Notes under the pieces: model-generated
Seen by the model: the letters and a program-made list of their open reading frames with translations, nothing else
Told to the model about the DNA's origin: nothing
Database searches by the model: none
Part shown: positions 1-36,537 of the stretch, piece after piece
Position numbering within the stretch: position 1 is the first letter of the stretch
How the letters are laid out: every line of letters starts with the position of its first letter
Translations under genes and position numbers: made by a program
Source of the DNA: Nemertoderma westbladi
Taxonomy: Eukaryota; Animalia; Xenacoelomorpha
DNA: 64,000 nt
Direction of reading: 5' to 3'
Assembly (NCBI GenBank): GCA_032718475.1
Contig: JAUCBJ010000597.1
Location: forward strand, 1 to 64,000

Positions 1-1569
1 CGCGCAGGAATGTGTTGATGTTTAATAGCACCCGCATTCCCCGCGTTAGAGAGCATCCCCAATTGGAATAAATAAATAAATTAACCCGCGTTTCGTTATG
101 TTCCTCGACTTATATTATTCTCTCCACGGACGAGTTATTAGCTGCTAGACAGGTAGACCTAGTCCCCCACAACAACGGTCATACCTTCAATCAATCAATC
201 AATTGAGCTCATATGAGCTCGTATATTAGTTTTATTTATAAATTGAAATCTCACGAATTAATAGGCCTATTAGCTGATTAGTGAACTATCATATGTTAGA
301 CCATAATATATATATTATATATTGGACCTTATCAAAATAGCGGTTGTACTGGGGCGGTATATGTTGTTCTCTAACCCACTGCAAGCGCATTTGAGGGGCC
401 GGTATGTTTTAATAACTTCTGGTACAACGGGATGCAGTATAACAGCGCCAAGTAGATTTAATCTGATCAGAATATTCCGGACGCTAAGTTCATGTCATTC
501 CCGATAAGTCGGGACTTTACAAAACTCGTGGATAAAACCGCGTGTAGCAGAGAGCAGATAAATTGGGTTGAATTGCAAAACAGAATAATATGGAACTGTA
601 AGTGGAACTGCGGCGATTTGGGTTTTTTTGTTATGGTGAATAGTCAGCCTGTCCGCGATATGTTCAGCTGCCCTTTTTAATGGGTTGCAGGTACAAATGA
701 AATACACATTGCAGTTACTAAAATAAAAGTGGCGCATATTATTGTACATTTACAACAACAATTATATAAATGCAATATGCCTGATCCCTATTAATGTACT
801 TTGTACCGCCAATTCTGTAATTCAATAACGCAAAGCCGCGTTTACTGTACAGCAGCACGTAATATATTTGATACTTATTATACTAACTAAACTAACAAAC
901 CGCAAGGCCTACTTACCGAAATAAATTAACTTTCAGTTAAATACAATATACTTGTTTGCTCTGTAAAAATTTTAATTAAAAACAATCCTGCCATTTAATA
1001 TACCTAATTAGCATGGTTGCGTAAGCAGTATGAATTGGAATGAAATTGTGAAATAATTTATTTAAACTATTATGTACATTTAGATTAAATAATAATACAG
1101 TAAGTTGGCCTACAGAAATAAACATTGATATTCGGAACAGTAAAACAATTATTTATTTCATTCATTCAACTAACCAGAGAGACTCATAGCTCCAGTGAAT
1201 ATTAACATCCCGACGTTACTTTAGTAATAATATTAATGTCATTGAACCCGATACACACACACCTCCAATCAGCCAGTTCAATGGAGAGTGAGTGAATGGA
1301 TGGCTACTAGCAGCAGCAGCAGTCTGCCTCTTACAAGCAAGGCTGACTGAATACCTCAAGTGTTGCTGGGAATCAAGCCAACTTGGATGTTAACCAATAA
1401 ATGAGCAGTATTTAATGAGAATACATTTTTTATGCCGGTTTAATTACTTTAGATCAATTAAAGACACGATTATTAAAGCAAATCACTTGAACTAATTAAA
1501 AACTATAATAGAATGGAGTATGCGGATTACATCTGTATATTTTTTAAGTATAATTATTGAAGTCTTATA

Positions 1570-1876
1570 CTGTAAAACAATTAATTTCCTTTACAAGGCA
1601 GGTTGAAAATGGTGTTTTTACCGTAATCAACTTAATTAACTAATTAACTGCTATTATCTTAGCTTCTCGAAGGCCACACGGAAATTCTACTTGGAAAATT
1701 TCTAAACTTTTGCCATACAACATGTGTACCAAGTTTGGATAGATTTCATCAAAGATTGGCCGAGTTATTAACGTTTAAAATTGAACACGACAGAACGACA
1801 GAACGACAGAACGACAGGTTGATTAATGGTACCACTACGCTAAGGCTCACTCACTTCGTGGCTCGCCCCACATAAT
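1570..1876 (+). mobile_element. Non-autonomous Helentron/HINE (DINE-1-like) element fragment
   Basis: (GACAGAAC)n microsatellite at ~1789-1816 followed by a GC-rich 3' segment GCTAAGGCTCACTCACTTCGTGGCTCGCCCCA, an architecture typical of HINEs. The 5' boundary is approximate. Confidence 0.4.
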
Positions 1877-3637
1877 CACATTTGTGCTTCGAATCAAGTT
1901 CTATTACATTTAGCCTACATTTTATACTGGGGCTTGATGTTAATTAATAACAATTAATAATTATTTGTTACCTTAATTAAATAAATAAATAATTAAATAG
2001 AAAAAGCCCTCTGCAATAGAACATAATTACTTAATTTGTAATACATGTAGCTGAGGGCGGCGAAACTCATACAGTACGAAGTGCATGTACTCTGCTGAAG
2101 TTGCTCCATGTACAGCAATCATGTTTTTACTTGTAAATGAACTGTTTTTCGCTGGTTCACAGTTTCATTAAGACACGTGTGAAACTGTATAACCATTCAG
2201 TGACACTGACCCCAGTGGTCTAAGTCACAGATTAATCTTATTTTAATGTATTATCTTTCGGAAGAGGTATATGAAATTGACTGTCAATGCATCACAGTGC
2301 GACATTTCCAATCTGACCATCATCGTCTTGTTGTGCGCAGAACTCAACTCAGTCTTCGTTTTAGAGAGTTTGCAGATGTCATCCACCCGGCCTGACTGGT
2401 TGCGTTGAAGAACCAATAGTGTGGAGGAAGAATTCACTACTAGGTCAGGTCTCAAACAGAGATGATGCACTGGAATGGATCAGTCTGAGAGGTACAGTAC
2501 ATACAGTACAGTTTGTTAACGCGGTGAATGACGACACGGATACTAAGGAAAGTACGAACTAGCAGAAGTCCAACAGGCGTAGGTTCAGCAACTCAATTGC
2601 TGCTAACGTGCTGCTTTGGTTGTCGTCGTCGTGTATTTTTGCAGATGTCTTCGCATTCAAGAAAAATCATTAGATTAGTTGCTTCTTTTCCAAATAATTT
2701 ACCTTTCGATTAGTGTTGTTGTGAAACTTGCCATTCACAATTGTCAATAATCACATGTAGATCGTAAGATTTAATTGGAATAAGTGATAGAACAAAACAA
2801 TATCAAATAATCAGAGCAGTACCCGGTATCTGTCGCAACAGTTGTAAGTGCAGTTAGTTAGTTCTGTAAAGTACAGTAGTACCTATTAAGTAGCTATTAA
2901 CTTAAGGGGAGTAGAATAGGCATTTTTTCAATACAAACTACTATTAAGCCTCGGTACTATTTAAGAACGCATCAGATTACTTTATAGGCCAACTGTTCTT
3001 ACATTCCAACCGGAATTTAATGGGCTTTCTGGTGAACCAATTATTTTTTTAATTTCAATTTTTTTTTCATATATTTAGCTTATTTTTTGAAAAATGGACC
3101 TAATTAAAAAAAAAATAGCCAAATAATTAGTGTCACAAACATTAAAATCACAATTCGGTGTTTATGCGTACATTATATAAAAAAATAATTGGTTCACGTT
3201 ATTCTACGGTAAAAAATGATCCTAGTGAGAAATGTTCAAGTCTATAACTCAAATAGCAGCTGAGAAAAATGTACCGAAAAATTTGAAAAACACATTTTGA
3301 GAAAACTCAGTTCAAATGTGAACCTTCCCGCGCAAAAACTGTGTTATTATGAAATTTCAATCTGTCAATATATGCCTAGCAAAAAGAAAGCACAAAACCA
3401 TGCTAAGATTTTTGCTATGGGGTTTTCCTGGTCGCTGATTTATTTCTGAGGTCAGTTTTCACTTTTAATGAAATCTTGTTTGTCTGTATGTAGGTCTGTC
3501 GGTCTTTCTGACTATCCGACAATCTGCCGTCAAATATAAGAAAAGGGCATACAATCTAGTTTAAAGTTTAGCTAGGAGTTTTCCTGGTCGCAGAATTCAT
3601 TTCGAGTGTCAGATTTAACATTAGAAGACTTCCAAAT

Positions 3638-4079
3638 TGTCTGTTTGGCAGTCAGTCAGTCGGTTATATTTTGACGGACATAATACTTGTAGGACTATGG
3701 ATAGGCCATGGCCTATCACGGTATCAGACTATATACTAGTAGCAGTAGGTTTACCTACTGCTGTACTGTTATCAGTACCGGTCTGTTCTACTCTGTACAC
3801 TGTATAGTGCCTATTTGATTATGCTACGGTACCGGTGAAGGGTATTGCTGTACTCCTGTCTGTTTGGCAGTCAGTCAGTCGGTTATATTTTGACGGACAT
3901 ACTACTTGTAGGACTATGGATAGGCCATGGCCTATCACGGTATCAGACTATATACTAGTAGCAGTAGGTTTACCTACTGCTGTACTGTTATCAGTACCGG
4001 TCTGTTCTACTCTGTACACTGTATAGTGCCTATTTGATTATGCTACGGTACCGGTGAAGGGTATTGCTGTACTCCTGTC
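3638..4079 (+). repeat. 219-bp direct tandem duplication (2 near-identical copies) just upstream of the 4170 ORF
   Basis: The block TGTCTGTTTGGCAGTCAGTCAGTCGG...GGTATTGCTGTACTCC starts at 3638 and again at 3857. Confidence 0.95.
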
Positions 4080-4169
4080 GTCTATCATATTATAGAACAA
4101 CAAACAAACAATAATTCCCGAACATCTGCTTAAGCTATTGTGGATTGAGAAATATAAAGTGACACGCAC

Positions 4170-5717
4170 ATGGACCCACTGAATCACTTGAGAGGGTTGG
4201 CAGAGATATTAAAGAAGACAGATGTCTTGGACAAAGCTGCTGAGATGAGAATAGCCAAATCTGAAGGGACCTCATTTCGAGAAATTAAACCATCTGGGAC
4301 GGTGCCTTATCCTCACTATAATCCTTACATAGTGTATGCACATGCCGTGGTTGGTCAGAGAGCAGAGACAAGGCTGAATTATTTGGGGATATCCTCTTTT
4401 CTGTATCACACAGTTGCTGGATCAACGGTGATCACTATGCCTCCCGCCAACGATGTTGCTGTCATCACAAAGACACTGAGCCATGCTAAAGATATCCCGT
4501 TTATCCAGTGGTTCATGTGCTGTATGGACACGCCACTCGGCATAGAAACCTTAGTGACTATGTTTCCTGATTACAAACAAGCATTCGCCCTGGCTTGCGG
4601 TGCTGGAAGCCGTTTCAAGCTGCCAGATTATCAGAGGATAGGATGGAAGCTCTACAAGGATATCACTGCTGGAACTGGAATTGGTGGATCTGAACTGTTG
4701 GACGCTACGAATATTCAAGAAGTGGGTGATGCCATCACAGAGCAGTTCAACAAGCATTACGAATCAATGCTTCTAAATACCATGGTCAAGACGCTACATC
4801 AGCTAATATCTTTGGGTATCTGCAAAGAAAGCAAATTTGCACAGACCGTAGACAATAGGATCGAGACTTACAAGAAAAGCACATTTGATCCCTCTCTGAT
4901 GGTGGGATCCACAGTGTTCATGAACCAGTTGACTAGTACAGTAGAACTGAAGGACGCAGTAAGGACAGCTGTCAGTGAAAAAGAAGCCCAAGCAGATATC
5001 CATGATAAGATGATCCAGTGGTACATTCAGCCCTTGTTTGGACAGTCCACTTATCCCCATCTTCTAGTACAGGCCCTTCTGAACAATGGACAGCTATTAC
5101 AAGCCTTGTCCATGATGGTGGACACCAGGATCATCATGGAAATCAAAAACTTGTACAATGATTCAGATATGTTTTATAAAAGAGCAATGAGGGAGGGTTC
5201 TATTTGCCCCGCCAAGCTGATCATGATGGAGTACAAAGGGGAATATGTTAGAAATGGGAGATTGACCTTGTCTTACATGTTCGGTAGAAACTTTGCTTTC
5301 CCAACGAACATAAAAACCTATGAACAAACAGCCATCATAAATACGGCAACTCAACTACGAGAAATGGAATATCTAGTGGCTTGTGCTAGCTACACTATAA
5401 CATATAATTCTGACAATCCCATATCGGCTCCAATATCACTAGTAGAGGTCAGCAGTGCCAGGGTAGCTATGGTCATAGACAAGACAATTGCTAAGATCGA
5501 TGGAATCAAACCAGAACGAGAAGCAATATGGAAATCGTTGGGACTGGATGATCAACCAAACCAGAATCCGAAAAGGCCCGGAAACAAAGGAGGAAATCCC
5601 ACTCCAACTTTCCAAGGCCCAGACCCGCCAAGAAACCAAGCCACCAGCGGCCAAAGCCAGCCCGCACCCCAGAAACCAACCGGTAGAAATCCCTTTGGAT
5701 CTGACTGGAATTACTAA
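4170..5717 (+). CDS. Intronless 515-aa ORF; probable endogenous viral element, nucleoprotein of a Mononegavirales/Jingchuvirales-like virus
   Basis: Long uninterrupted ORF whose A-rich, CpG-poor composition differs from the flanks. Apparently helical core plus disordered P/Q/G/N tail. Motif order LISLGICK..KF..TVDNRIETY / LFGQSTYPHLLVQAL / CPAKL / LTLSYMF / TNIKTY recalls borna/nyami/chuvirus N. The ORF is solid; the family is inferred. Confidence 0.55.
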   Translation: MDPLNHLRGLAEILKKTDVLDKAAEMRIAKSEGTSFREIKPSGTVPYPHYNPYIVYAHAVVGQRAETRLNYLGISSFLYHTVAGSTVITMPPANDVAVITKTLSHAKDIPFIQWFMCCMDTPLGIETLVTMFPDYKQAFALACGAGSRFKLPDYQRIGWKLYKDITAGTGIGGSELLDATNIQEVGDAITEQFNKHYESMLLNTMVKTLHQLISLGICKESKFAQTVDNRIETYKKSTFDPSLMVGSTVFMNQLTSTVELKDAVRTAVSEKEAQADIHDKMIQWYIQPLFGQSTYPHLLVQALLNNGQLLQALSMMVDTRIIMEIKNLYNDSDMFYKRAMREGSICPAKLIMMEYKGEYVRNGRLTLSYMFGRNFAFPTNIKTYEQTAIINTATQLREMEYLVACASYTITYNSDNPISAPISLVEVSSARVAMVIDKTIAKIDGIKPEREAIWKSLGLDDQPNQNPKRPGNKGGNPTPTFQGPDPPRNQATSGQSQPAPQKPTGRNPFGSDWNY

Positions 5718-8700
5718 TTACTGTGTATCAAGCCCCATGAGTATGATAGTCACTGTGCTTGTTCAAATATAATCAAATATATGCCTATTCTGCTTATTAT
5801 ATTATATATGCAATATCGTATACTTTATATTTACATTTGCATCCTACAATACTGACAGGCATACACATACAGACAGAAACGACGAGGCTAAATAAGAATA
5901 TTGACATCAGAAATGAAGTCACCGACCACGAAAACCCATATATGGAATTTTTTAGACAGATAGTTTGCTTTTTATTGACGGACAGACATTCTGACGGACA
6001 AACCGACAGTAAAACGGACAGATAGCCATATCTCGAGAAGTCACACAGATCTTGCTAAACAGTTTAAAAATTTGGAATCTTCATAAAAATCGGCTGTAAA
6101 TGAAATAGAATAAAAAAAATTTGAAAAAAAAATATGAATGCCGCATATTGAATACTATATTATTATAATATATTTAAACACTACATATTGAATACTATAT
6201 TATTATAATATATTTAAACATATTGAATAAATTAAGACATTTCTCACTTCTTTGTTGGATAGGCATTTGGTGTAGGCCTAATTGTTCTAGTAAGATCCAC
6301 ATTTGGTGCGCTTGTAGTTGTAGTAAGATCGGCATCACGCTTCTCCCGTAATTGATTTATTAACATTCTAAACAAATAAACGGCATTTTTACAGTAAATG
6401 AAAGAGCATATACTGTAGCATAGTACTGTAGCTTTAGAAGCTTAAGTATTCTAGAGCTTTAAATACCATATATTATTGTCTTCATTATCTATTTATATAC
6501 ATGACTTTCTATCTGCCTGAGTATCTACATGTGTCTGAGTGTTTGTCATAGCAAAATAAAGAATGTGATGTGCTACAGTATTTAGATTGAGGGGGGGGGG
6601 GGGGGGGCACTTGACGCAGGAGAAATCAACGAAAATTAGAACTGATTACCCTTAAACTTTAACTGTAACCTGTTCTATTGACTTTCATTTATCGCTTTTG
6701 TTAGAACATATCATGCTGCCACTGCAACCTGCCCCTTTCCCTTAATTGATAATCCACTTCAAACATACTAATTCGTTTATTGTTTTGGTTAAATTCAGCT
6801 CTTTGGTTACCTGCGTTTTTTTGTGAAAACATGGAATTCTTGGCAGTGGGGTAAACTGCATAAAGTATATTTACAGTAACAGTTAACAGTATAAAGTCTG
6901 GTATACTTCACATGGGTCGGTTGATTGGGACCTACCAAGAATTCAGAAAGTATTTAGAGCAATAATTTTTAATTGCTACAGTATATATATTTTACATGCT
7001 ACCGGAAGTTTGATTACCTTATATTTAGTTTTCCATCATCGCCAGTGTTGGGTCTACCCATCACCGCTACAGACAAAGACCCCAAAACGAAAATGTAAGT
7101 GAACATTTTAATTTATATGTGGGTTGAATGCCACGATGATTTCCAAACATTCCCGCCAAATCACTGTTTTAAACCATTAAATAATACTAGTTTGGTTATT
7201 GTTTGTTAAAATGCAATCATCAACTCTACTCTATGTAGTAAAGTACTAAAATGAATTCGCATTGTCACAAACGTTCTATCAAAGACACGTGCCACTCGCC
7301 TCGTAATGTGAGACCGTAAATAATCAATTTAACTGTTGGAATTGGAAACATAAGTAAAGTTACTTCCTTCACGTTTTGACGTAAATCACGCCCATCTGTG
7401 GTACACAAACATTATTACCAACTTTCTTCGTGGTTAGATTTCCTATACAACACCTACCGTAAACCTAGCGAGAAGCGAGCCACGAGCGAGATCAGTTTTC
7501 AGTGAGTTGAGTTCTACACTAGTACTGTGACAGAGCTTCTTTCTCTTTGACCTCTAGATCATATTGGTTGGTAAGACTGACAAGGATAATAATCAATAAA
7601 CACTGAAATATATAAAATATGGGGGGTCATATTCTCTCAGTTTCTCAGCCTTTATGTCTACTGTCACAACAACAACAATTACATTATTTTTTAAGGGTGG
7701 GTCCCTCTCCCTACAACAACTGCATAGCTCTATAAAGAGGCAGTTACGTTATAACAATAACTTGTGTTTAGTTCTACAGTACAGTAATTACCACACGGAA
7801 AACTGCAACTAACCAAACTGTTAGGGCTACTAAATACTGAAACAGGTCAGCAATGCACAAATAGCCTATCCAACCCAATATTATTTAATTAAGAAATCGC
7901 TCTGATGAGGTTAGAACCCAGAACGAGGTTAGAATTATTACGATAACAAGAAAGGTTATATGCGAACAGGCGTCTACGCGGTTCAATATAATTACTGGCT
8001 ATGTATTTGGATACAATAATTGTAATAAAACTCTGCACTTAGCACATTGACGACAGTGTTAGAAATAGCCAGTCACCAAGACAGTAAGACTAGCCAATCA
8101 GTATCAAGTACGCACTCACACTGAATTTAATTTAATATACTGTATTATCCATGGAATTATATGGAAATTGACCCTGGAATACAATAAAATTATTATTAAT
8201 ATCAATCATTTATAATACAACTTCATCATTGCATATATTACATTATACAACACAAGCAAGTTGTTAAAATTAAATGTCAAACACCCGAATTAGTTAACGT
8301 GGTTGCTATGACCCGTGTCTGCATTATGAACCTGTACTGCGGCAACAGCCAGTCGCGAGGGTAATACGCATCCAATAGCCTACTGTATAATGTATTCTCA
8401 TTCTCATGTTGGTGCTACTCTCTTAACCCCATGAAATGTGGGGTGTAAACGGTAAGCCGACAACTGACAGCCGACAACCACTGCTGACAACAGCAAATAT
8501 AAAAATGTAACATGAGTTAGTGACTCTTGTTTATTGTTTTGGTTAGAATAACCTTCCACTGTAACCTGTTCCTTTCCCTCAATTAATAAATAACATTAAT
8601 TAGCTTTAATAATGGTTATCGGCGTTGGTTGTCGGCTGTCGGTTGTCGGCGTAGCGTTTACACCCTGAAATTTGTGAGATTTCATTAAAGTATTAATATA

Positions 8701-9875
8701 ATCATAATAGCACTGCTAAGCTATAGCTATATGCGTTGCTCTTATAATAATTATATTTAAATGGAATTATGTAGTTATATTTATAATCGACAGTCTTACT
8801 CTCTTACAGAATACATTATGTTGTTATTAATATACAAAAATAAGCACCTGATCAGCGCATAGATGCAAGGGTGTATCATGCAAAATACACAAAACACTCA
8901 TGTGAAGAATACATGGTTTTCACGTTTCGGTCAAAATGTTATTGGAACGAACTGCAATTAAAAATGTGACAGCATAGCCGACGCAAGACGCATAGGGACT
9001 GGACGCAATAAAAATCCATCCCTCTCCAGGGGAAATTGGACGCAAATAACACACGATTACTTTCAAAAATAATACTGAAACCTGTTCTATTGTGTTTAGT
9101 TTATTGTTTTGGTTAAAATAACGTGCCACTGTAACCTGCTCCTTTCCATAAATTGAGAATTTAACATTGAGGCTGGATATTAATTCGCCAAGGCGAGTTT
9201 GGCGTCCAGTTTCCCCCTTGTCTCTAAATGTGAGGGTATTCAAATTTGTTTAACATATTTTGGGTCAGCGCGTTAGTGGCAATATTATTGGTGGCGTTAT
9301 TTGAGAAAGGCTCTTTCACATTTTCGTGCTAATTTCTGCCTGATGTATAAGAAACCTTCACCGAAACTTCAGGCTTATGACTAGCTTCTGATTCGTTATC
9401 GAGAAACCATATACGCTATTACACACCCAGACGTGACGTGTACAGTAGGCCCTAAAGTACATTATATAAAAAATACAGTTATAAGAATATTTTTAACATT
9501 GTTTTATATTTATTAACATAAACATTATATAAATAAACACATTCAAGTTACGGCCTAAATGTTAAATTAGGCCTATATCAGTTGCCTGAATCTGTCCATG
9601 ACAGTAAAGTAAGGTAAAGTTATCGGGGAACCTGAAACACTAACTACCGGGGGCATCACGAAGGCTCCGCTCTCTTGGCTGTTACCTGTAATGCAGATTG
9701 GCCGCCACACCAACTCCCAAGGTTGATATTTCTCACTATCTCTTCACTGACTCTACACAACCTGGAGATAACGCTTATGTGGCTCCTTAAATAATTCATT
9801 CGGGTAATATTTTTTTAGAAATTAACATTAGTAATACATAAATATATTATCAAACTTCGTATTTTCCTATTTTAG

Positions 9876-10046
9876 GTGTGTAGAAAGTATAAAATAGAGA
9901 CTGATGATGGCACTAAGTGTGAGGACTCGTGTGGTAGTCCTTACGAAGATGATGGCGGTGCGTTGACTTTAAAGGACGATATACTCTATTCTTGGGATAT
10001 AACTGGCAGCTGTTTGGAGGAATGTCCGAAAGGCACATTTATATTG
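9876..10046 (+). CDS. EGFR: EGFR-family RTK exon, furin-like domain II (VCRKYK...CLEECPKGTFIL)
   Basis: ttttag|GTG acceptor, TTG|gtatgt donor, phase 0/0. Resembles human EGFR VCRKFRDEATCKDTC...CVKKCP. Confidence 0.9.
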
Positions 10047-14463: not shown

Positions 14464-17351
14464 GTAAGTAAATATATTTAGTTACCGTAGGCTACGGTAC
14501 TACTGTAGAAAACACAGTTGGTAAATACTGTAGGATCTTCATAAGAGTAATGTGTGACATCCAACGTTACTCCAACATTTGCCGACACCGTCAAAATGTA
14601 AGAAGAAAGACTGGATTCCACCAAACATTAAACCTTAAATAAATAAATTGGAGTTGAGCTGTTAAAGATGTAATATGGTTTTGTTCAGATTTGGAAAACG
14701 CTGGTATAGCGCTGGTTCAACCCCCGGTGACGCGCTTTCTCATTTTTTCCATTTCTGAACGAAACCATAATATTAAACCTTAAATCACCGACCCCGAAAT
14801 TCCTCGTAATGATAATTTTAGCATGGTGGTTGGTGGTGTGCAGTCTTACTGTAGTTATTATTTTCTTGTTCTTACTGTAGATTCTTTAGGTTTTTTAGCC
14901 AATTTTCACCCAAATTTGTGAACTCTCCAGAAGTTTTTACAAAATGAGTTTTGTTGAAATATTATTGTAAATTTACATTTGTTTAGGGCCTATATAATTA
15001 CATTTTGGTTCAAAATATTACGAAATTATTTTTATGATCGATTATACAGTAATGCACGATTAAATGGTGTTTCAAAATCTGAAAACAGCTATTTAATAGC
15101 TAATTTTAGTTAAGTTATAATAACAATTTCCATTTAGGAAGACCTATTGAAATTACTAGTACTATGCATAAAGAAGGGTAAGCTCCTATCTCCAAATATT
15201 TTTTAAAAATCCTAACTACTTCTACAATTTTTGAGCAACTACTGTAGTCTGAAAATTTATGTGGGTGTCCATATAGATTTTTGTGGATGTCCTTCATAAA
15301 AGTATCAGACAACTTTTTGAAATTTTTAGTTAATAAAATGTAATATTATTTATAACAAACCAAAATTTAGCATAAATTTGCAGCGCCACCTGGCGGCGTA
15401 GGTTCATTTTCACTGAATTTCGTCTTATACTGTAGTTATGTTGCCAAATCCTTGATCTGTCATATAAAAAAACTTTCCTGTAATTAAATTTAAAACCCTA
15501 AGACTTCGGGTTTTAAGGTATTAACTAATATTATAGCGAAAAATAAATTGTTCTGAGTTCTGACCTGTCATGTAGAATAGCATCTTAGGTGCGTATATTC
15601 CAAATTATAGCCAAAACAAAACCATTTTGAAACGCTGAGCGTGATAAATCGAAAAGTTGTCCGAAAATGGTGTACCAACCCCCCCCCCCCCCCCCTTAAA
15701 ATGAATATAATTAATTAATATTAATTACCGGTAATTTAATTAAAAGTCATTTAATTTTTTAGAAATTTTAATTAGGCCCAATAAAAGTGGTGGTAAAAAA
15801 AACTGGGGTTCTGGCTTTCAAATATTTTTTTTTCTATTTTATCATCGCCATGCTGATTCCAAAAAACAGGTTACAACTTCTGAAAATAAAGCATAACAAA
15901 GGAGATTAGTTTTACGTTAAAAAATAAAAATTTTGGCTCCGGTCGCTAAAGCGGCGTTAAAATTGAATTTTATTTTTGAAAATCTTACATAATTTAATAT
16001 AGTCCACCCAAAATGTATCTTACACTTTTATACTTATTTGCTTTTTGGGGCAGTATGTATTTCAAAATGTTGACTTCCAATAAGCAAGTACCTATCCACC
16101 CCCCCCCCCCCCCCCCCCCCCCCCCTTAAAAAATCTGCAATTTTTGAAGATTCAAAGGTGCGGGGTCCAAAAAAGTTGGTAAATACTGCACAACACTCGC
16201 TGTTTTTTATTTTGTTAGTTAGTAAATATAATTATTTGTAATGCCCTACTGCTACGGTAATTGTATATTGTCTTACTGTAAAGCTCAGTTCACAGATACA
16301 CTTCACGGTGACATCGCTGTCAAAGTGCAGTGCATCCGCTTGAACCGGGCGTACTGCAGTTACAGTACTGATGCATGATATAGCAGCAGACTGGCAGAAA
16401 TACTGATGTATGTATGATGTACTGCTAGGCCTACTGTACTGGCCTGATGTGGATGTGGAACCTAAAATCCTAAATATAAACGGAGAAAAACTAAAAAAAA
16501 TTACTGAACATTGAACAAGTAAAGAAACTGACATAATGAAACAATATGCAATACCGGTAGACCGCTTCACCCTGCTCCTGCTTTCACCTTTTATTCTGTT
16601 ATTATTTTAATTCTGTACACATGTCCAATGTCAGCATGTACAGCTGTCAGCTGTAGGCCTAATTCAATAATTGGAGTACAGGAGCTATAGGCCTACTGCT
16701 ATATGCAATACTGCAGTACTGCAATACACAATATAGTACAGTACAGTACAGTACACAGTCAGACAGTAGTAGGAAGTAGGGTAGGGTGTACGTACACAGT
16801 CTGACAGTGCTGCAGTGCAGTGCAGGCTGCAGTGAGACAGTACCGCGTACCGGTACGGGCGGTACCTGTACTCAGTACCAGCCACCAGAGTACTGTCTGA
16901 CCTGATCTGCTGATTGTCAGACTGTCTGACTGCACCGGTACCGATATCTTCAATCTTCCGAGATATTACTGTATCAGCACAATCAGAGTATTACAGTATT
17001 ACAGTATTAGACTGCTTGACTCGATTGGACAGACCAGCAGACAGTACATCTAGTAACAGTAGACAATGCTGCAATGACAGAATGACGGCACTTACTGACT
17101 AACCTGCTGACGGTGAACATTCAGCACAGACAGACCGACAAGACAACGGACAACCCAGCAACCACAAGGCCACAACCTTACAACCAAGAACCGAATCATT
17201 AGAACGTACTGCCTTAAGTCTCAGACAGTGCAGTGACATTGACATAGTATATAGCCATTTTCTTGTATTATTCACCCATAGCAGCATAGTACTCACTGCT
17301 GTACCAACTGGTACTGGTACCTACTGACCTACGTTATTATAAATAAGGAAA

Positions 17352-18419
17352 ATGCCGAGCCCTGAAAGAAATCGGACGCGAGGAGCGAGACGTCCTCGAC
17401 CTTATGACAATCCCTCCGAACGCGGTAAATCCTCCCACAGAGTGTTCCTAAGCAACCTTCCTTATGATCTCCGATGGCCAGACCTCAAAGACATATTCCG
17501 GGACAAGGTAGGCGAGGTTGGACACGTGAACCTACAGCTGAGCGAAGATGGGAGGACGAACAAAGGGATCGGTTGGGTAGAGTTGACAAACGCTGAGGAC
17601 GTCGAGAAAGCCATCGACGTGCTCAATCGTACCGAGGTTAAAGGCCGGAAGATAATCGTTAGACAAGAGACGTCTAGGGATCGGGAGCGGTTGCGAGAGA
17701 CCAGCGAAGATGTCCGTCGTCAACGGATGCCGTACGCCGGGATGGAGCCGACGCTTGGGGGCGGGGGGATGGGGTTCCCAGGGGGCACTGGAGGCGGAGG
17801 GGGGCTCCTAGGGGGCGGGGGGCTAAGCCAAATCGCCATGCTGCTGCAGCCCCATCTCGCGGACGCGTTGTCCGGCGGCGGGACCAACTGCACGATCTTC
17901 GTCGCGAATCTCGAGTACGGCATCGCGTGGCAGAAGCTCAAGGATATCTTCAAGGTGGCGGGTCGGGTGCGGCGGGTCGATTTGAAGGAGGATAACGCGG
18001 GTAAAAGTCGAGGGTGCGGCACAATCGAGTACAGCAACCCGGAAGAGGCGATACGAGCGGTCTCGATGTTCCACGGACAAATACTAAACGGGCGGCCCAT
18101 GTCGGTCCGACTGGACGACATGGGGGGTAGAGGGGAGCGTGATCGATATGCCCCCCCTCGGGGGGACCGAGGTAGGCCCCCTCCCCGGGGGGAACTCGAT
18201 TTCAAGCCGCCCAGAGAGGCCGACTTTATGCCACATCGGCCTCCTCCCATGGATTATATGCCTCGGGAGGATCCGTTGATGGGTTTGGGTCGGTTGGACA
18301 ACCCGCTGTTGGGTCAGTTGGCGGGTCTCCTCCAGTTGGCCGCATCCCGCGGTGTCGGGGATGTTTACGAGGACCGGAGGGATTACGGTTACCGTGGGGG
18401 CCCCAGGTACGGTCGTTAG
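17352..18419 (+). CDS. Intronless hnRNP M/MYEF2-like RNA-binding protein with two RRMs, nested in an EGFR intron
   Basis: RRM1 RVFLSNLPYDLRWPDLKDIFRDKVGEV...KGIGWVE and RRM2 TIFVANLEYGIAWQKLKDIFKVAG...GKSRGCGTIEY...AVSMFHGQILNGRPMSVRLD are characteristic of hnRNP M/MYEF2. G/M/R/P-rich linkers; GC-rich intact ORF. Confidence 0.88.
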   Translation: MPSPERNRTRGARRPRPYDNPSERGKSSHRVFLSNLPYDLRWPDLKDIFRDKVGEVGHVNLQLSEDGRTNKGIGWVELTNAEDVEKAIDVLNRTEVKGRKIIVRQETSRDRERLRETSEDVRRQRMPYAGMEPTLGGGGMGFPGGTGGGGGLLGGGGLSQIAMLLQPHLADALSGGGTNCTIFVANLEYGIAWQKLKDIFKVAGRVRRVDLKEDNAGKSRGCGTIEYSNPEEAIRAVSMFHGQILNGRPMSVRLDDMGGRGERDRYAPPRGDRGRPPPRGELDFKPPREADFMPHRPPPMDYMPREDPLMGLGRLDNPLLGQLAGLLQLAASRGVGDVYEDRRDYGYRGGPRYGR

Positions 18420-24535: not shown

Positions 24536-25047
24536 TTTTAAATCTTTTAACGGGAATCATGACTAATGTGGTTTTCGATTGGAGCAAGCCTGGAGTGTCC
24601 GATTGCTGATCAATGCTGATCAATGCTGATCATGGTCAAGATCATGATCGGGCAACTTCAAACTCGAAGTTGTGAAGGTAAACCATATGCTGCCTATTGA
24701 TTGGCGCCGGTCCCAACTCCGTAGCATTAGCCGTTTTGGCTGTAGCTCCATAGCAATGAGGTTGCTAGGGAGGCTGACTTTTTGACTCAAATTGGCCCTA
24801 GACGGAGAACCGTAGACTTTTGAAACATAATGTATATGGGAAAAAGTCTTCTGGATAAATTTTGTGGGGGGGTCTAGGAACATCCTATTGTTGGTTTTCG
24901 CTTAGTTTCTGAGAAAAGCTTCTCCCAGAAATTCCGGCCAATCTATAAAGGCCTGCGCAATGCTAGTACCGTGGCCGAGCACGGATTCGGGTTATCCGAA
25001 CACGATAACCTGCGGTTGGGGCCCTGACCGTCCAGTCCTTCCTCATG

Positions 25048-25994
25048 AGTAGTATGGTAAACACCTGGAATAAAACAGCTTCTGCAATAGTCTACCATGT
25101 TAAAGAATTTGCCGAACGGCTCTTGCCCCGCCTACTTACTATGATTACCATTGTTGCCCCACCCACTTACTATGGTTACTATGGTTACCATTGTGCATAT
25201 GTAACATATGTCACCACTGTGTATATGTGACATATGTGGTATAAGGCCAGTCCACAGACGGAAGTAATTTAATTAATTCGTGTCTACCGGTTGGCGTTTG
25301 ACCTTGAACCGCAATAGGTAAAACCCAATATAGTAAGTGGGTTGCAGACGTTTGTTATAAAGTCTTTAACATGATAGACTATTACAGACGCAACAACTAA
25401 AAAAGGTGAATAAACACAGACTAACGGTGGCTACCAATATTGTCAAGCAATAAGTTGCGGGGGCGAGCCGCGAAGTGAGAATAAGGTATTTATAATATTA
25501 TTTTAATTTGATTATTCTACCTATGGGGCGAGCCATGAAGTGAGTGATAGCATCGAAGTAAGGTTATTGTATTTATACTTATCACTACGCAACAAGTTGT
25601 GGGGCGAGCCACGAAGTGAGTATAAGGTTATGGTATTTATAATATTATTTTAATTTGATTATTCTACCTATGGGGCGAGCCATGAAGTGAGTGATAGCAT
25701 CGAAGTAAGGTTATTGTATTTATAATATTATTATTTTAATTTGATCATTTACTTAAATCCGGCACCGCTTTATTTAAAAATTTCTCCCACCATCCACCCG
25801 CTTATCCTGCTATCACCATCCGCCCAATCTTCTTCCTCATCCTCAACATCATTACCACCACCACCATCACCCAACATCCCCATCATTCTTTCCAACATTG
25901 AAAAAATGGGGCGAGCCATGAAGCGAGTGAAGCCTTAGCATATGGGTGCCATTAATGAGTTGTGGGGCGAGCTACGACGAAGTAAGGTTATTGT
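25048..25994 (+). repeat. Polinton left terminal inverted repeat
   Basis: Reverse complement of 43548-44495 with only about 10 differences seen by eye. Contains internal GGGGCGAGCC(A/G)(C/T)GAAG(T/C)GAG repeats. Confidence 0.96.
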
Positions 25995-26080
25995 ATTTAT
26001 AATATTATCATTATACCAACAAATTTGATTATTATACTTAAATCCATCACCATTACTATTTTAAAATTTCTTCCACCACC

Positions 26081-26515
26081 TCACCCATTTATCCCGCTAT
26101 CCTCGCTATCTACATCCTCCACATTATTACCATTACCACCACCACCATCACCCAACATCCCCATCATTCCTTCTAACATCTCAATCCTTTCTTTCATCAC
26201 CTTCTCCTGTGCACACCTCTCAGCCTCCCTCGTTCTCCTAACCCCCTCAGCCTCCATCTCCAACTCCCAATCTTCACCCCACGCACTGTTCTTTCTCGCC
26301 TCTTCCTCCAAATAATGGTTCTTCTCTATCTCCTCCCACTCATTTCTTGGATTTAACAACCTCTCCAACCGCGCTTCTTCTTTCTCCCTCGCATACATAG
26401 CCACCAATATTGCTTCATTCTCCTTCGCTATTTCAGCCACCACATCCACATCTTCCACCTCTTCCCCCACATCCATATCTACTTCATCCACCACAAGTTC
26501 ATTTTCCCCCAACAT
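26081..26515 (-). CDS. Polinton acidic (E/D-rich) hypothetical protein
   Basis: 144-aa ATG ORF, Glu-rich and coiled-coil-like. Its 3' end is duplicated inside both TIRs. Confidence 0.55.
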   Translation of the reverse strand: MLGENELVVDEVDMDVGEEVEDVDVVAEIAKENEAILVAMYAREKEEARLERLLNPRNEWEEIEKNHYLEEEARKNSAWGEDWELEMEAEGVRRTREAERCAQEKVMKERIEMLEGMMGMLGDGGGGNGNNVEDVDSEDSGING

Positions 26516-26747
26516 ATCCGTGTATAATAAATAAAATAAAGTAATAAATATATAAATATGTGTATAATAATGTATAATACTATAAATAAATTTATATAAT
26601 ATTTATTTCAATCGATAATTCATTATACCAACAAATAATTTACCACCACAAAATAATAATAATAATTTAACCGTGCCCGGCTTTTTGCGGCGACACCGCC
26701 TACGAACATGGTCTATTTATATAATAAAGTTTCTACCGCTCGAAGAT

Positions 26748-28040
26748 TCACACTGAATGTTTATTCTTCTTTATTTGAGGTTGCCCATTAGTCTCGATTT
26801 CATTGAAAATGTCTTCGCCATCATCCGTATCATTGACGATGTCCTCTTCAAAGTTGCTGATATCTTCATACTCATAGCTAGGTGTTTTATTCACGATGAG
26901 ATCAATTTTTCGCTTAAGCGCTTGTTCTTTCATGGCTTTAGGTGTTTTCATCTTCATCTGAGCGCTCACACCCCCAACGAGGGTATCAATATCCTTATAA
27001 TCATTCTTTTTTTCAGCGCCGTCTACCCGCTCATTTTCTGCAATCGCGGGCAACCAGATTTTTTTCTCATCCATTTTCTTAGCAGCGACTTTTACTGCTT
27101 CGGACGTCTTCAGCTGACTAGCGTTGTCCGGCATTTCCACTTTCATTAGTTCCTCGTCCACTAATTCATCAATCGCAGCCTCAACAACTAACTTTTTAAT
27201 CGGTAGAAACTCACACCCAGACGGAATATCGTGGCCCACGTACTTCTGTAATTCCTTAATTATCTTGACATTTGCGTTGTTTCGAGGGATGAAAATAGCC
27301 TTGGTGTCGAAGTTGTGGGACAAATATATCCCGTTTTCGTTAATGATCGATCTGTACCTTACACTAACCTCGTCGATATTCTCCTTAACATTCTTATCTA
27401 TGTTAAAGTCGAGCAAACAGAATTCATCCGCTCTGAGATTCAACCCATCGTAATATAGAACACCCTTCCGCTGTTTACCTATATCATCCGCTTCCCAAAC
27501 GCTGACAAATCGTTGCCCTTCAAAGTCGTAGATATATCCAATGTACCCACAATCTTCGAACTCCATAAAATTCTCATCATGAATTTCCTTCTTTTTTGGT
27601 TCAATACGGGAAAGAACGACTTTGCCGTAGATGCTTTGTAAGACATCTAGAATTTTTCGCGAGATAAAAATTTATGCACCGTTTTTCCCAATGCGTAAGT
27701 ACGCATGATTTATTGGTGTTATAAGCAAATTGCCTCTGGTGTATTCCTTGTAATATTCAATGGCTATTTTATTATAATTGAGGAAGTCAAACAGGAATCT
27801 TATGTTCTGGTAAGTAAGACTTACCGATTCTTGCACGACGTTGCGTCCTTTTGTATCACCCCAACGGCTGAATCGAACGTATTTCCCGTTAAATGCTTTT
27901 ATTTCTATTCCTTCACCCAAACACTCGAGGCCCCACACACTCTTACCTGTAATCACCGATACGTATGGGGCGGGCGTGCTATCAGTAGAGCTACCGCTTA
28001 ATGACATCATTTTTGGTTGTGATGGTTTCGCAGATTCCAT
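26748..28040 (-). pseudogene. Polinton protein with tandem PC4-like (ssDNA-binding/coactivator) domains; one gene interrupted by an in-frame TAA at 27672-27674
   Basis: ORFs 27672-28046 and 26748-27566 are in the same frame, separated by one stop plus 35 sense codons. IEIKAFNGKYVRFSRW...SVSLTYQNIRFL and IYDFEGQRFVSVWE...RKG...GLNLRADEFCLL resemble PC4 (VRDFKGKVLIDIREY...KGISL..EQW..L). Acidic/basic tail. Confidence 0.55.
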
Positions 28041-28251
28041 CAACAAATTTTGTGAAATATTAATAATTAAGTGTAAAAATACAATAATATTGCGCTATAC
28101 AATGTGCGAAAAATATGAAATAATGAATTAACCCGAATGACAAAATAAAGTATTTTACGACGTATTTATAATATAATGATGGGCTATCGGGAAAACGGGT
28201 ATAATTTAACCACTCAACCGGATTAATCGCTATTGTCCTGAGAGAATTTTT

Positions 28252-28277
28252 TTTGAAAAACTTCCTATAAATTTCGA
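28252..28277 (+). promoter_or_regulatory. 26-bp TATA-containing motif, copy 1 (TTTGAAAAACTTCCTATAAATTTCGA)
   Basis: Exact second copy at 42955-42980. Lies in the divergent intergenic region with ATF/CRE-like TGACGTAA (28307) and TGACGTCA (28412). Function is inferred. Confidence 0.5.
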
Positions 28278-28741
28278 GGGAAATATTTATTTACGCTTAA
28301 ATTGGTTGACGTAAGTGGTAACAGCTTGCGGCGGCGATTAATGCGGCCTATATAAATTTTTATAGACACACCCTCAAAATTCCGCAGAATATTACTCACG
28401 GTTAAATTGATTGACGTCAACTGTATTAACTGTGTAGCTTCTTAGAAGTTTCATAATTTTAAGCATGAGCGAATTTAATTTAATGTCGGGATCTCAAACT
28501 TTCTCTCACAACAGATATTTTTCTGTAATCATTTACTAAAAACGAACGATTGCGGCGCGCGAACGGCGTTTTAAAGACACACCCATTATAAATATACCCA
28601 TTGGTCAAAATATTATTGATTAAGCAACATGACAATACTGGGGCAGCTTGAGTCTATAGATAAGATCATTTTTTCAAATATATTATTCATTGTTACCTTT
28701 CTTTTAGGAATTTTTTAGGTAAAATACGCCATAATAAAAAA

Positions 28742-29260
28742 ATGTTTCCAATAATACAAGCTGAAAATAGTTACCGCGGTCCTAATTCAATTATTCCAAT
28801 TAAAATTGAATTGTTAAGCCCGGCAGCTCGGGCACCTGTATGCGGTTCATATAGCCCAGCTGGGATTGACATATATAGCGCCGTGAATAGAACAATAGAG
28901 CCGCACTCACGGATGTTAATTGAGACGGGTGTTAAAATATATTTACCCGCCAATTATTTTGGAAGAATTACACCGACTTTTAGCTTGACAAAAATTGGCA
29001 TCGATGTTGCAGAATGTGCGGTTGATTCCGGCATTGCGCGCGGTAATATAGATCAACTTGTAATTATATTGATTAACAACACATCTAAGGAATACGTTGT
29101 AACATCGGGCGATAAAATATGCCAGCTTATATGCCAACAATGTAATGCTGCAATACTCTACATTTCTAATATTTATTCGGATGATTATTTTGGGCTTTTA
29201 CCGACGAATTTAACGCCGTATGGGGAAGAGATTAATTCGACATTTTACCGCGCATATTAA
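28742..29260 (+). CDS. dUTPase-like protein, probably catalytically inactive
   Basis: Motif I AGIDIY, IETG and motif IV GDKICQL are present. Motif II is GRITPTFSL (RSG lost), motif III is AVDSGIARG (Tyr lost), and motif V RG..GFGSTG is absent. Confidence 0.85.
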   Translation: MFPIIQAENSYRGPNSIIPIKIELLSPAARAPVCGSYSPAGIDIYSAVNRTIEPHSRMLIETGVKIYLPANYFGRITPTFSLTKIGIDVAECAVDSGIARGNIDQLVIILINNTSKEYVVTSGDKICQLICQQCNAAILYISNIYSDDYFGLLPTNLTPYGEEINSTFYRAY

Positions 29261-29553
29261 ATATGTGACATTAAACGCATAACACCAAACTCGGGTGGTG
29301 ACACATGTCAATACTATTTCAATACTCTTACACGCGATTATACAACATAGTTAATAGAGCATATAAATAGGATAATGTCAGTTCAGTAAATTTTGGTTGG
29401 TTAAACGGTTTCTAGCGTGGGTGGCTGGTTGACTGGGTATTGGATATATTTATCTACATAAAATCTGCCGCATCTCTTTCATCGGCATATTGTAAATATG
29501 TTTTCTGTACCTACGTTAATAAATATATTATAATCGTAATAATAATAATTATA

Positions 29554-32500
29554 ATGATGGAGATTAATTGCGTTTTTTGCGGTTGTACTATACTTAAGAA
29601 AAATTATTTACGGCATTTACGCGCACATTTCGATGGGTATGTTTGCGATAATTGTAATTGCCGAACTACTTCTGAAAGAATAGCAATATTTCACAGTAAT
29701 AGATGTTGCGGGTTGTCTCGCCCGAATTACACCTACTGCGGTTACACGCTATCCTGCCCGACATGCTCTGATGATTTTGAAAACTTCGATTCATATATCG
29801 AACATAGTTGCCATCAAAACCATTACAATTCCCGCAAACGCAAACATAACCAAAAACAATCAGAACCGACATTTCAACCGGATCTCAACCTTGGTTCGCC
29901 TGTAAGCATTACAAACAGTTCAGATACACCCAACGAAGGTTTTTATCTCTCAAAAACATGTCACGAATCACGCGTTCAGGAATATACCCATAATGTGTCA
30001 TCTAATGAGATGTATCCGGATGTGCCGAATTATTTAAATTATATGGGGTTATATGCTTCGCGCGCTTTTAACACGGCGGCATCGGCTTTTATTGATATGT
30101 TTTATAAAGTGTGGGTAATTGCTTCAGTGATAATGAAACGTGATGATGCTAATTATACTCTAGAAGAAGAATTCCATTTTACTTCGATCGGTACAGATAA
30201 TTATATTGAAAATAGCTCGGATTTTGACGAATGGTACTACACAGTCATTTCCCATATCGGTGAAAAAATATCGCAATTTATTAGGCGGGGTAGCGGCTGG
30301 AAACTTGTAACTCTATCGCGCATCAAACTTACTATTGCGTCATACTTGCGATCGGTATATCGTTTTGGACATAGCGGTGATGCCAACCAATCAATCCCGA
30401 CAAAATTAAAAAATAAACATTGTATAATAAATGTACCATGTAATGAAGGTGAATGTTTTAAGTGGGCGGTCCTGACAGCAAAATTTTCAAAACATATATC
30501 GGATGATCACACACTGCGCCATGTTTCACGCCAAAGTTCTTATAATCAGTATTTAGGGTTTTTTAATTTAAGCGAATTAGACTCTACCCTATCATGGAAA
30601 CTAAATATTCTAAAGTTTGAAAAAAATAATCCAAATTATTTAATAAATTTATTGTATTTTGATAGAAGTAGTGAAAAAATTTCCTTTCTACGGCAACCGA
30701 GCGCTAAAAAAGCTGAAGGTAAAAGATTGCTAAATTTATTGCTTATTGAACGTCAAAATTTAACCTCAACAAATCACATCGTCGGGGTTTCTAACTTAAA
30801 TAGATTATTTAATGGTCGTGGGGAAGGCAATAGCGACCATCATTGTCATCGTTGTGAGCGGTGTATTTGCGGTTTCTACAGTCCAAATGCGTTAGAATGC
30901 CATAGATTAGGGTGTTGGCAAGGCGGGCGCCAAATAGAGGAGATGCCATCTAAACTGAATTTACGTTTTACTAATTACTATAAGTACACTATTTTAGTTA
31001 GTACTTATTAGTACACCTTTCATAGTATATATGGATTTCGAAGTGGTACTAGCCCCAACAAATAATGTAAAAAAATATTATATAGCCGAACATCTCCCGT
31101 CGGCTGTGTCATATTTGATTGTCTCCAACGGTGAATTAATTAACCCCCCAAATTATTTTTTGTCTACATTTAGACAAAATATCGATAATAACTCGGTACA
31201 GAATTTTATTGATAGTCTGGTTTTTTATTTATTTAAGTGTTATGAATGGTCTACCTTTAACACACACCACCCCAAACACCTGGATCACACACAATACCAA
31301 GCTTATATGCGTAACACAAATTGCTTTAATTGTAAATCATTTTTTCGGGAAGATATAAATCCAAGTGTGATGCATCACAACCATTACAACGGGGCTTTCA
31401 TTGGTGTGGCGTGTATTTCCTGTAATAAACAATTAAGTGTTAAACGTCACCTATTCCCAGTTGTCTGTCATAATTTTTTTTTTATGATTCACATTTAATT
31501 TTACAAAAAGGGTTTGCCGGTAGTAAATATAAAAATTGGAACATTGAAACCATTGCAAAAAATACTGAAAGATATATCTCACTCCGCATCGATATTCCAA
31601 TGTCAGAAGCACTTAGCGTTCTTGGTTATGCTATTCCAGAAAAGGACGTAAGAGGGCTCCCAACCAGCAAATCAATAACTATACAGTTTATTGATTCATT
31701 CGCGTTTATGGGATTTTCCCTTTCTGCTTTGGCTGGGTTTTTGACAAAAGATGTGTCAGATTTAACAACCGTTATTCCACACACCGTGAAGCAAATGAGA
31801 AAATTATATCCAAATGTTACCAACGAAATTTTATGCCGTAAGTCAGTTTTTCCTTACGAATATGTCGATTCCTTAAGTAAATTGGGGGATACTAAATTAC
31901 CGCATCCAAAAGAGTTTTACAGTGAATTAACATTATCATCTATTAGCCCTGAAGAATATACATTTGCACATCTTTCGTGGGAGCAATTTCAATGTGAGAC
32001 ACTTTTTGATTATTTGGAAGCTTACTTACATCTTGACGTGTTGCTGCTAGCCGATATTTTTGAAAATTTTCGCGCATATTGTACTAAACATTATTCGCTT
32101 GAGGTGTCGAACTATTACACGATGGCGGGGGTTAGTTGGGACGCGGCTTTGAGATTTTCCAAGCCACATATTCGTCTACTTGCAGACCATGAAATGTATT
32201 TAACATTCGAAAATTCCATTAGGGGCGGAGTTTCTTACACCAACCTTCATATGGCAAATGCGAATATACCAGGCACAGAAACATACGACCCTAATAAACC
32301 CGAAGCTCATTTATATAATTTAGATTTCAACAGTTTATATAGCGGTTCTTTGTCGGAGAAACTTCCTTATTCTGACTTTGAATGGTTGGATGTTGATAGT
32401 GTCGATATCATGAGTCTGGAAATTGACGAAATATATGGATACTTCGCAATTGTAGACCTTGAATACCCAATGACTATTCATGATGCCACAGCCGAGCTTC

Positions 32501-33641
32501 CATTTGCACCGGAGCATATTAAACTCGATAGTAGGTATCTCAGTCCACACATGAAAAGTCTTTGGCGACATTATAATGGTGATAAAATTTTCAATAGCCC
32601 AGCAAAAAAATTGATGTTAACCCAATTTGATAAGTATGAGTACGGTGTGCATCTAAAATTATTGCGCTTTTATATTCATCATGGTATGCGCTTGATTAAA
32701 GTTCATAAACTTATTAGATTTAAGCAAGGTTACATTTTTAAGGATTTTATTGAATATAACACCCAGCAAAGAAAAATAGCAAGCAATGACTTTTATGATA
32801 AGTTTCACAAAGGAACAAATAACGCGCTTTTCGGGAAAAGCATGGAGAATATACGGGACCGTGTCTCATTTCGCTTATGTAATTCAATCGAGAAATGTGA
32901 CTTATTATTATCCAAGCCGAATCACGAAAATTTAATTATGTTCACTGATTCATTATCGGGTCACGTCCTATCTAAGACTGCGGTTTGTTTGCATAAACCT
33001 ATTTTTTTAGGGCAAGCTGTATTGGACCTGTCGAAGTTAGATTATTACAGTTTCTTCTACGAGAAATAAAGCCCCTGGAAGCCGAATTAAATTGTAGTAT
33101 AAATTTGTTAGGTGGGGACACGGATTCTTTTTTTTTACAGTGTGTTGGTTTATCCCAACACCAATTTTTATCTGCGTTACAATCAAAAAAAGTTTTAGAC
33201 TGTTCAAATTATCCTATTACACATCCGTTGTATACAGTAGAACAGAAAGGGAAATATAGATATTTAAAGGATGAAGGGAAGTCTATCCCGTTTGACCAGG
33301 TTATTTTACTTAGACCAAAATGTTATAGCTTTCGTGGGGGGTTAGTTCCAAAACGTGTCGCTAAAGGCGTAGGAAAAATGGTTATAAAAAAGAAACTCTC
33401 CCACGAATCATATTTAAAAGTATATAACGAGGTTAGCGAGCATTATGAATACAGTCAAAGGTTTCAATCTAATTTACATAAAATATACACCGTTTCACAA
33501 AGAAAAAATTCGCTAACACTGTGGGAAGATAAAAGGTACTACACATCGACTAATGAAAGTCTACCTTACGGCCATTATAAAACACATTTGGATCGTAAAG
33601 CGCCCGCCCCTAAGCTTTATATGCCGCCCATTATAGAATAG
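29554..33641 (+). pseudogene. Protein-primed family B DNA polymerase (pPolB) with N-terminal zinc fingers, split into 4 ORFs
   Basis: C2H2-like fingers; GSGW; CFKWAV; exonuclease YMDFE, HN...YDSH, FIDSF, KSVFPYEY, YLHLDVLLLADIFENFR; EndoVII-like HHNHYNG...CISCN; polymerase DFNSLY, K...NALFGKS, GDTDS, LRPKCY, DKR. Breaks near 30990, 31480 and 33066. Confidence 0.95.
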
Positions 33642-33650
33642 CGGATTGCG

Positions 33651-35103: not shown

Positions 35104-35120
35104 GTGGCTACCTATCAACA

Positions 35121-35831: not shown

Positions 35832-35957
35832 AGACGCCGCGCTAAAACCATTTTCACACCTTGTTTAGACTTTCACCAAAATTAGGTTATTATCGGTCCA
35901 TGAACGTGAACTCCAGTACAGTATATAGTATTAATATATTAATAATGATATATAACG

Positions 35958-36419: not shown

Positions 36420-36537
36420 ATCGACATGCGGAAACAAAACGCGGGATAACATTAAAATAGTAGTATGTTTTTTGAACGTTTCATATTAAGTATTAACTGC
36501 CATTGCAAGTGTTTTCTGCCGCGACACGACACAACCG

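Follow-up and report, generated by a model that had tools for sequence, protein, structure and literature searches.

A whole orphan open reading frame inside a solo LTR of Nemertoderma westbladi, possibly copied from the RNA of a virus

The DNA analysed here (the window) is a stretch of 64,000 nucleotides from Nemertoderma westbladi (Xenacoelomorpha), positions 1 to 64,000 of contig JAUCBJ010000597.1 in assembly GCA_032718475.1. Its subject is an open reading frame (ORF) on the + strand that runs from an ATG at 4170 to a TAA closing at 5717 and encodes 515 amino acids, uninterrupted by stops. A first interpretation made from the letters alone (the sequence-only reading) had taken it for a nucleoprotein (N) gene of Mononegavirales or Jingchuvirales, inserted by a long interspersed element (LINE) as an endogenous viral element (EVE), probably within an intron of the EGFR gene. 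The ORF is real and better delimited than first described, being a whole orphan gene in a solo long terminal repeat (LTR). The feature behaves like an LTR-captured EVE, and the status of an N gene or of a domesticated gene goes beyond the evidence. The earlier interpretation had overlooked three things: the LTR that surrounds the ORF, a tandem duplication of 219 nt at 3638-4075, and a nested gene on the minus strand. Five public sequencing runs from three studies carry all or part of the stretch, and their contigs were compared with the window; the contig sets are filtered, and contig depth is a rough guide only. Four runs are named below: X1, X2 and X3 are DNA runs, and X4 is labelled 'DNA?'.

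The ORF lies in a 263-nt element, split into a first part of 188 nt (3907-4094) and a last part of 71 nt (5778-5848), both on the + strand. The element starts with TGTAGGA at 3907 and closes with TCCTACA at 5848, so that it has TG...CA ends with a short inverted repeat. A 5-bp target-site duplication surrounds it, CTACT at 3902-3906 and ATACT at 5849-5853, with agreement at 4 of the 5 bases; the first base of the right copy is C in X2 and X3. Contigs from other copies match from exactly 3907, with a purine tract resembling a polypurine tract (PPT) just before it (X1, X4), and one contig of 2339 nt continues after 5848 with TGGCGC..., which resembles a primer binding site (PBS). According to the accessible parts of PMC11020628 and section 15 of PMC13524379, a PBS after the repeat and a PPT before it are the defining marks of an LTR, and the split element is an LTR in + orientation. 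Because both sides enter a high-copy repeat with a 5-bp duplication, the LTR was classed as solo. The host repeat that served as its target extends from about 3400 to 3901 on the left, where it is partly duplicated, and from 5854 to about 6170 on the right, as judged from contig depth, which sums to thousands; joints from 3680 or 3903 to 5866 in the DNA runs skip the whole LTR. The LTR family is low-copy and little diverged and includes sister copies without the insert, which diverge after 5845 or 5848. A second class of copies (X1, X3) diverges at 5845, 3 nt before the LTR end, and is possibly truncated or nested. The window contains no tRNA gene with which the PBS-like sequence could be matched, and a metagenome scan for the gag-pol of the parent family gave eight unrelated matches, with 30 letters visible per internal end.

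The bounds of the insert could be set at 4095-5777, since short contigs of the empty LTR in X1, X2 and X3 join 4094 to 5778. The insert of 1683 nt thus consists of a 75-nt leader (4095-4169) with a CAA-rich start and no upstream ATG, the ORF, and a 60-nt trailer (5718-5777). In X1 and X3 four other bases stand between the two edges of the empty form, and the insert takes their place in an otherwise continuous LTR, a small loss with no duplication. The trailer contains no run of five or more A at the 3' end, and the insert has no target duplication of its own. Because both hallmarks are absent from an insert that lies inside an LTR also existing in empty form, the LINE-mediated route is unsupported; what stands of the earlier claim is a foreign, intronless, single-gene insert. 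The ORF reads in the sense of the LTR, whose TATA-like box (3949) lies about 140 nt before the insertion site, itself 71 nt from the LTR 3' end. Positions 5759-5764 are the reverse complement of the first 6 nt of the insert, a match seen post hoc that was equalled in 87 of 10000 shuffles, and X4 has a different base at 4097. Termini of Helitron or parvovirus type were considered for the palindromes in 3907-4094 and rejected, as the folding was no better than in shuffles (z -1.05) and the LTR signature accounts for the palindromes. No Rfam match was obtained over 3400-6200.

Three studies have runs in which insert and LTR sequence are joined, with differences at the level of alleles. In X1, X2 and X3 a single contig (4065-5807) spans the insert from end to end and extends 30 nt into the LTR at either side, and a contig of X4 crosses the left insert junction by 188 nt; misassembly of these junctions, which the sequence-only reading had named as a possible refutation, was therefore not found. 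The depth of the ORF contig was close to that of single-copy flanks in X1 (23 versus 17-19) and X3 (28 versus 24-31), and in X2 it was 67 versus 36-78. At 80% likeness only a single long contig covers 4095-5777 in each DNA run, which leaves no host parent in sight; in the filtered contig sets of X1 and X3, neither a second copy, nor a parent, nor an exon matching in part was found at 80% identity or above. Placement in this intron is less firm than the joining of insert and LTR: on the right side the bridge is no more than 30 LTR bases long and comes from one sample (X2, X3), and none of the contigs listed bridges the left junction of repeat and LTR. At that left edge lies the tandem duplication of the repeat/LTR junction (3638-4075, + strand). 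Its two 219-nt copies differ at a single base, the first of the target duplication (3683 A, 3902 C), so that ATACT stands at 3683-3687 in the duplicated copy, and it is either real or a haplotype merge.

An uninterrupted, intronless frame of this length was borne out, the longest stop-free run in 2000 shuffles of the insert having a mean of 100 codons and a maximum of 252. The encoded protein has a low-complexity tail from about 5535, as had been noticed earlier, with P, G, Q, N, S and T making up 70% of the last 60 residues (456-515). No 19-residue segment exceeded a Kyte-Doolittle hydropathy of 1.5, so there is no clear membrane segment, and no CCHC knuckle was found. Two AlphaFold models of the protein had mean confidence (pLDDT) values of 35 and 37.5, too poor to test for the two-lobed helical fold of N, and fold searches from these models were uninformative; the protein may yet belong to a family absent from the searched sets.

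The ORF had also been called A-rich and CpG-poor. Only the second part held: its A fraction (0.32) is no higher than that of the flanks (0.31-0.33), but its ratio of observed to expected CpG (0.44) is lower than in any of the 99 equally long tiles from positions 1-54000 of the window (minimum 0.58). The dinucleotide profile is within the range of 58 N ORFs of negative-strand viruses, 21 of which have a CpG ratio of 0.44 or less. The value is below that of all 5 ORFs of a Polinton-like element in the window and of all 44 partitivirus polymerase segments (minimum 0.64), which served as a proxy for capsid segments, and two host EGFR exons and an RRM-domain ORF gave 0.98-1.16. The composition fits genes of negative-strand viruses, unlike partitivirus polymerase segments, Polinton ORFs and host exons.

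Searches for relatives of the protein gave no family. There was no match in Pfam at E 10, only two chance matches among PDB sequences, and none in a set of 5.8 billion proteins (whole protein at E 0.001, residues 40-455 at E 10, covering lengths 283-902 only), in the ESM Atlas (whole protein and residues 95-415), or among viral contigs, metagenome contigs and phages. The sole match among 1.84 billion representatives, P0002 (E 4e-7), was rejected as a chance match summed over repeats, since it is a repetitive protein of 2439 residues that aligns over about 45-80 residues at 27-31%. No related ORF was found elsewhere in the window by tblastn; the short ORFs of 1-26000 were not all scanned for other viral genes. 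A cellular or transposon protein, which would have contradicted the viral interpretation, was thus not matched in the databases searched.

Membership of the N family was assessed with N proteins collected from loci of negative-strand viruses, which were fetched by way of their polymerase motifs. The 64 proteins in N position formed 8 groups, labelled from clustering, gene order and, for some, Pfam matches; truncated paramyxovirus-type N and one truncated chuvirus-type N were kept, and of the singleton first ORFs 5 joined the set and 5 were left out as unverified. Against 7 N alignments, hhalign gave a probability of 0, with only 2 of 10 held-out controls clearly detected. A pan-N profile scored -0.6 bits, with 3 of 100 shuffles as good and the match positioned outside the conserved block. 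An anchored profile of the C-lobe block of Mononegavirales and Jingchuvirales, scored end to end, gave z -0.56, and 350 of 500 shuffles did as well. Among the 64 held-out N, 44 had z >3 and 14 had z <2, and the lowest (0.0) was still above the ORF protein; these controls are flattered, because the block columns were derived from an alignment that included the held-out rows, and 4 of 60 presumed non-N proteins also reached z >3. Pairwise phmmer comparison with 254 non-polymerase ORFs of negative-strand virus loci gave a best E of 0.18. For the nucleoproteins of segmented negative-strand viruses (orthomyxo-, bunya-, qin-, yue- and ophio-like) no Pfam family matched, with no calibrated profiles used. 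Given three profile tests at the level of noise, the N claim was lowered, though 14 of the 64 true N also fall below z 2: as judged from sequence, membership of the Mononegavirales/Jingchuvirales N now appears less likely, and N identity by any route of insertion is doubtful.

The ORF is open in all four versions seen, where covered. The X1 version shows no difference from the window, of which X1 may be the source. X2 has one substitution and a gap of 3 nt; X3 shares this gap and has 13 substitutions and a net gain of 6 nt besides; and the X4 version is a mix of the X2 and X3 differences. None of the 13 substitutions creates a stop, and both indels between versions are net multiples of 3, a frame-keeping pattern that would arise by chance with a probability of 0.006-0.06 under assumed rates of 3n indels. 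The frame-keeping indels are a hint of selection, short of a demonstration.

No run is recorded as RNA, and we infer that X4 is one because it has a splice-like joint, a loose end at a GT donor, and no cover of the single-copy intron at 2000-2803. The joint, 6367/7018 with CT..AC ends, occurs in X4 only and is missing from the three DNA runs; the loose end is at 6248, and the letters beyond it are absent from the window. Contigs of X4 cover 3907-5653 with short breaks. The ORF is therefore probably transcribed, as judged from this one run, in which contigs indicate presence only and not strand, start or level. One contig of X4 carries 504 nt ending in a purine tract, followed by the LTR with the alleles of the window and by the ORF, and is either a filled LTR on the body of an element or an assembly path. 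In X4 nothing covers 5654-5848 and the empty joint is missing, which was not used as evidence.

The same joint delimits a nested gene on the minus strand. Its first visible exon (7018-7246) has an ATG at 7106 and, by eye, a hydrophobic N-terminus like a signal peptide; its second (6248-6367) ends in the GT donor at the loose end of X4, and the two exons, 7246-7018 and 6367-6248, are in phase. The next intron would run leftward over the LTR and the ORF to an exon outside the window. The product is probably a secreted, Thr/Pro-rich protein with a KR dibasic site.

EGFR exons follow to the right in collinear order. The first visible one (9876-10046, + strand) encodes part of the cysteine-rich region, about profile positions 261-303, with an E of 0.29 only; the next lie at 10513, 13026, 14074 and 21266 (E 3e-4 to 6e-8). 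A weak search of 1-9876 found no exon for profile positions of about 1-260. Since these exons were not found to the left and the gene is collinear from 9876 onward, the ORF is probably in an EGFR intron, as had been proposed; this is likely, with the proviso of the marginal exon at 9876 and the weak leftward search. One EGFR kinase exon does not place the host among the animals, being equally close (60-67% identity) to proteins of fish, insects, chelicerates, hemichordates and tunicates. Other features were seen in the EGFR introns. A Polinton/Maverick-like element of about 19.4 kb (25047-44496) has terminal inverted repeats of about 950 nt (749 nt at 99%) and ORFs for dUTPase, protein-primed PolB, ATPase, an integrase with chromodomain and a protease-like protein, several of them split across frames. 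The intronless, GC-rich ORF at 17343-18419, on the same strand, has two RRM domains and presumably resembles hnRNP M/MYEF2. An 18-nt satellite of 418 copies (98% matches; 55015-62538), stop-free in several frames, lies in an intron of the kinase region. Elsewhere in the window are an array based on 22 nt (49653-52591), two small inverted-repeat elements resembling miniature inverted-repeat transposable elements, at 8441-8665 (51-nt arms, 86%) and 3032-3197 (20-nt arms, 100%), and a minus-strand reverse-transcriptase fragment (63261-63743; Pfam RVT_1).

The explanation we favour, to which we give an even chance, is that the reverse transcriptase of the LTR element copied the 1683-nt intronless cassette from the RNA of a CpG-poor RNA virus not yet described. 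Reverse transcription primed at the PBS would copy the last 71 nt of the LTR; the enzyme would then switch onto a co-packaged foreign RNA near the 3' end of that RNA, run to its 5' end, and return by a second switch to the LTR at 4094. A switch during first strand transfer would fit a site 71 nt from the LTR 3' end. The cassette would then be part of the LTRs of the new element, LTR-LTR recombination would leave a solo copy, and the TATA-like box would now drive the ORF. In the weakest step of the proposal, the protein would be a soluble, largely helical one of capsid or nucleocapsid type, not detectably of the Mononegavirales/Jingchuvirales N family. Selection may keep the ORF open as an antiviral decoy or a source of RNA. 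Template switching is the published route for hybrids of LTRs with viruses, as proposed for EVEs of Aedes in the accessible parts of 10.1101/127498 and PMC5497376, and for hybrids of LTRs with mRNAs, as shown for host mRNAs in that of PMC5131818. A more far-reaching version, in which a whole gene of an RNA-virus lineage without a sequenced relative was copied end to end into the LTR, had the LTR promoter from the outset and now serves as a transcribed host gene that selection keeps open across the species, seems to us rather unlikely.

Several observations weigh against copying from viral RNA by the LTR element. The retrocopies described in the accessible part of PMC5131818 take the place of internal sequence, are in many cases incomplete and have microsimilarity, whereas here the LTR is continuous but for 4 bases; microsimilarity at the junctions cannot be judged without the donor. 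The viral origin rests on anatomy and composition, because no viral relative was found in any search, and the reverse-transcriptase ORF of the window is about equally CpG-poor (0.48). Selection at the protein level is unsupported, because 9 nonsynonymous and 4 synonymous substitutions were counted where 2.9 synonymous ones were expected (P 0.31). Finally, the RNA status of X4 is itself inferred, and its join of purine tract, LTR and ORF may have come about in assembly, by way of LTR sequence that copies share.

The main rival supposes that the cDNA of a foreign RNA was patched into a double-strand break of a pre-existing solo LTR by end joining, without any template switch. The loss of 4 bases with no duplication from an LTR that is otherwise continuous, the presence of about one copy only, and the 13 bases that follow the 6-nt terminal match and may be filler would all agree with this. 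However, the break would have had to fall in one of the few 263-nt, little-diverged LTRs of a family that keeps PBS- and PPT-like flanks, and one contig of X4 links the filled LTR to internal sequence on the PPT side; we regard end joining as improbable. The cassette could also have a source other than an RNA virus. Another mobile element could have supplied it as an accessory or Gag-like gene, or it could be the mRNA of a symbiont or of a fast-evolving host gene, whose parent was lost or filtered out. The lack of any viral match is in keeping with this origin, the retroelement ORF of the window shares the CpG depletion, and filtered contig sets leave the absence of a parent unproven. Against it stand the lack of a second copy or partial exon at 80% in X1 and X3, of a CCHC knuckle, and of any match in Pfam, the PDB or the representative library, and the far higher CpG ratios of the two EGFR exons and the RRM ORF, so that a non-viral source is, in our judgement, unlikely as well.

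Insertion of a Mononegavirales or Jingchuvirales N mRNA by LINE target-primed reverse transcription, as the sequence-only reading had it, now appears very improbable. Length, low-complexity tail, helicity (predicted at low confidence) and dinucleotide profile would fit an N, only 9 of 30 control proteins in N position were recognised by Pfam as belonging to an N family, and N is a common source of EVEs in Aedes, according to the accessible part of 10.1101/127498. The ends of the insert, with neither poly(A) nor duplication, and the C-lobe, pan-N and hhalign results all speak against it. An assembly artefact or contaminating viral sequence could account for the near-perfect duplication at the left LTR edge and for the poorly bridged outer junctions of the LTR, but the join of insert and LTR recurs in the runs of three studies, with allele differences and at roughly single-copy depth, which makes an artefact hardly credible.

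Endogenous bornavirus-like nucleoproteins (EBLNs) are likewise single intronless genes, sometimes open and expressed. They differ from the insert described here in being recognisable N homologues and in bearing LINE-1 hallmarks. Closer in anatomy are the non-retroviral EVEs of Aedes associated with Ty3/gypsy and Pao/BEL elements, in which foreign RNA-derived sequence is tied to an LTR retrotransposon; the accessible parts of 10.1101/127498 and PMC5497376 propose template switching and name N genes as common donors, and PMC5497376 gives all but one of these integrated sequences as partial ORFs, with more than 92% below 5 RPKM. Unlike those, the present insert comprises a whole ORF with leader and trailer inside the LTR itself, with ends known to the base from empty sisters and no donor found. 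Host mRNA retroposition mediated by LTR elements, as far as the accessible part of PMC5131818 describes it, shares with our locus the lack of L1 hallmarks, LTR sequence on both sides, a genic site and transcription from the element, but such copies have a host parent, replace internal sequence and are often partial; here the ORF is whole, no parent was seen, and the LTR lacks only 4 bases. The Ty3/gypsy errantiviruses that carry env (PMC13524379, accessible part) are also LTR elements with a virus-derived extra gene, found across invertebrates. Their env is a membrane glycoprotein encoded between the LTRs in many copies, whereas the protein here has no clear membrane segment and is encoded in about one copy inside a solo LTR. 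We found no report of a whole viral ORF inside an LTR in the open-licence literature, which is not proof of its absence from print.

With empty sister LTRs at hand, both ends of the captured RNA are known to the base, and the locus allows a direct test of whether an LTR reverse transcriptase copies foreign RNA starting near the 3' end, continues to the 5' end and provides it with a promoter. The protein is invisible to EVE screens that depend on homology, and such inserts would therefore be missed; a search for long ORFs that split LTRs would catch them without homology. If its origin is viral, the cassette attests a lineage of viruses from an animal group for which sampling is poor. If the capture with promoter and the subsequent selection are true, the locus would represent a route by which an entire viral gene is domesticated in one step, and would be the fossil of a virus group so far unknown.
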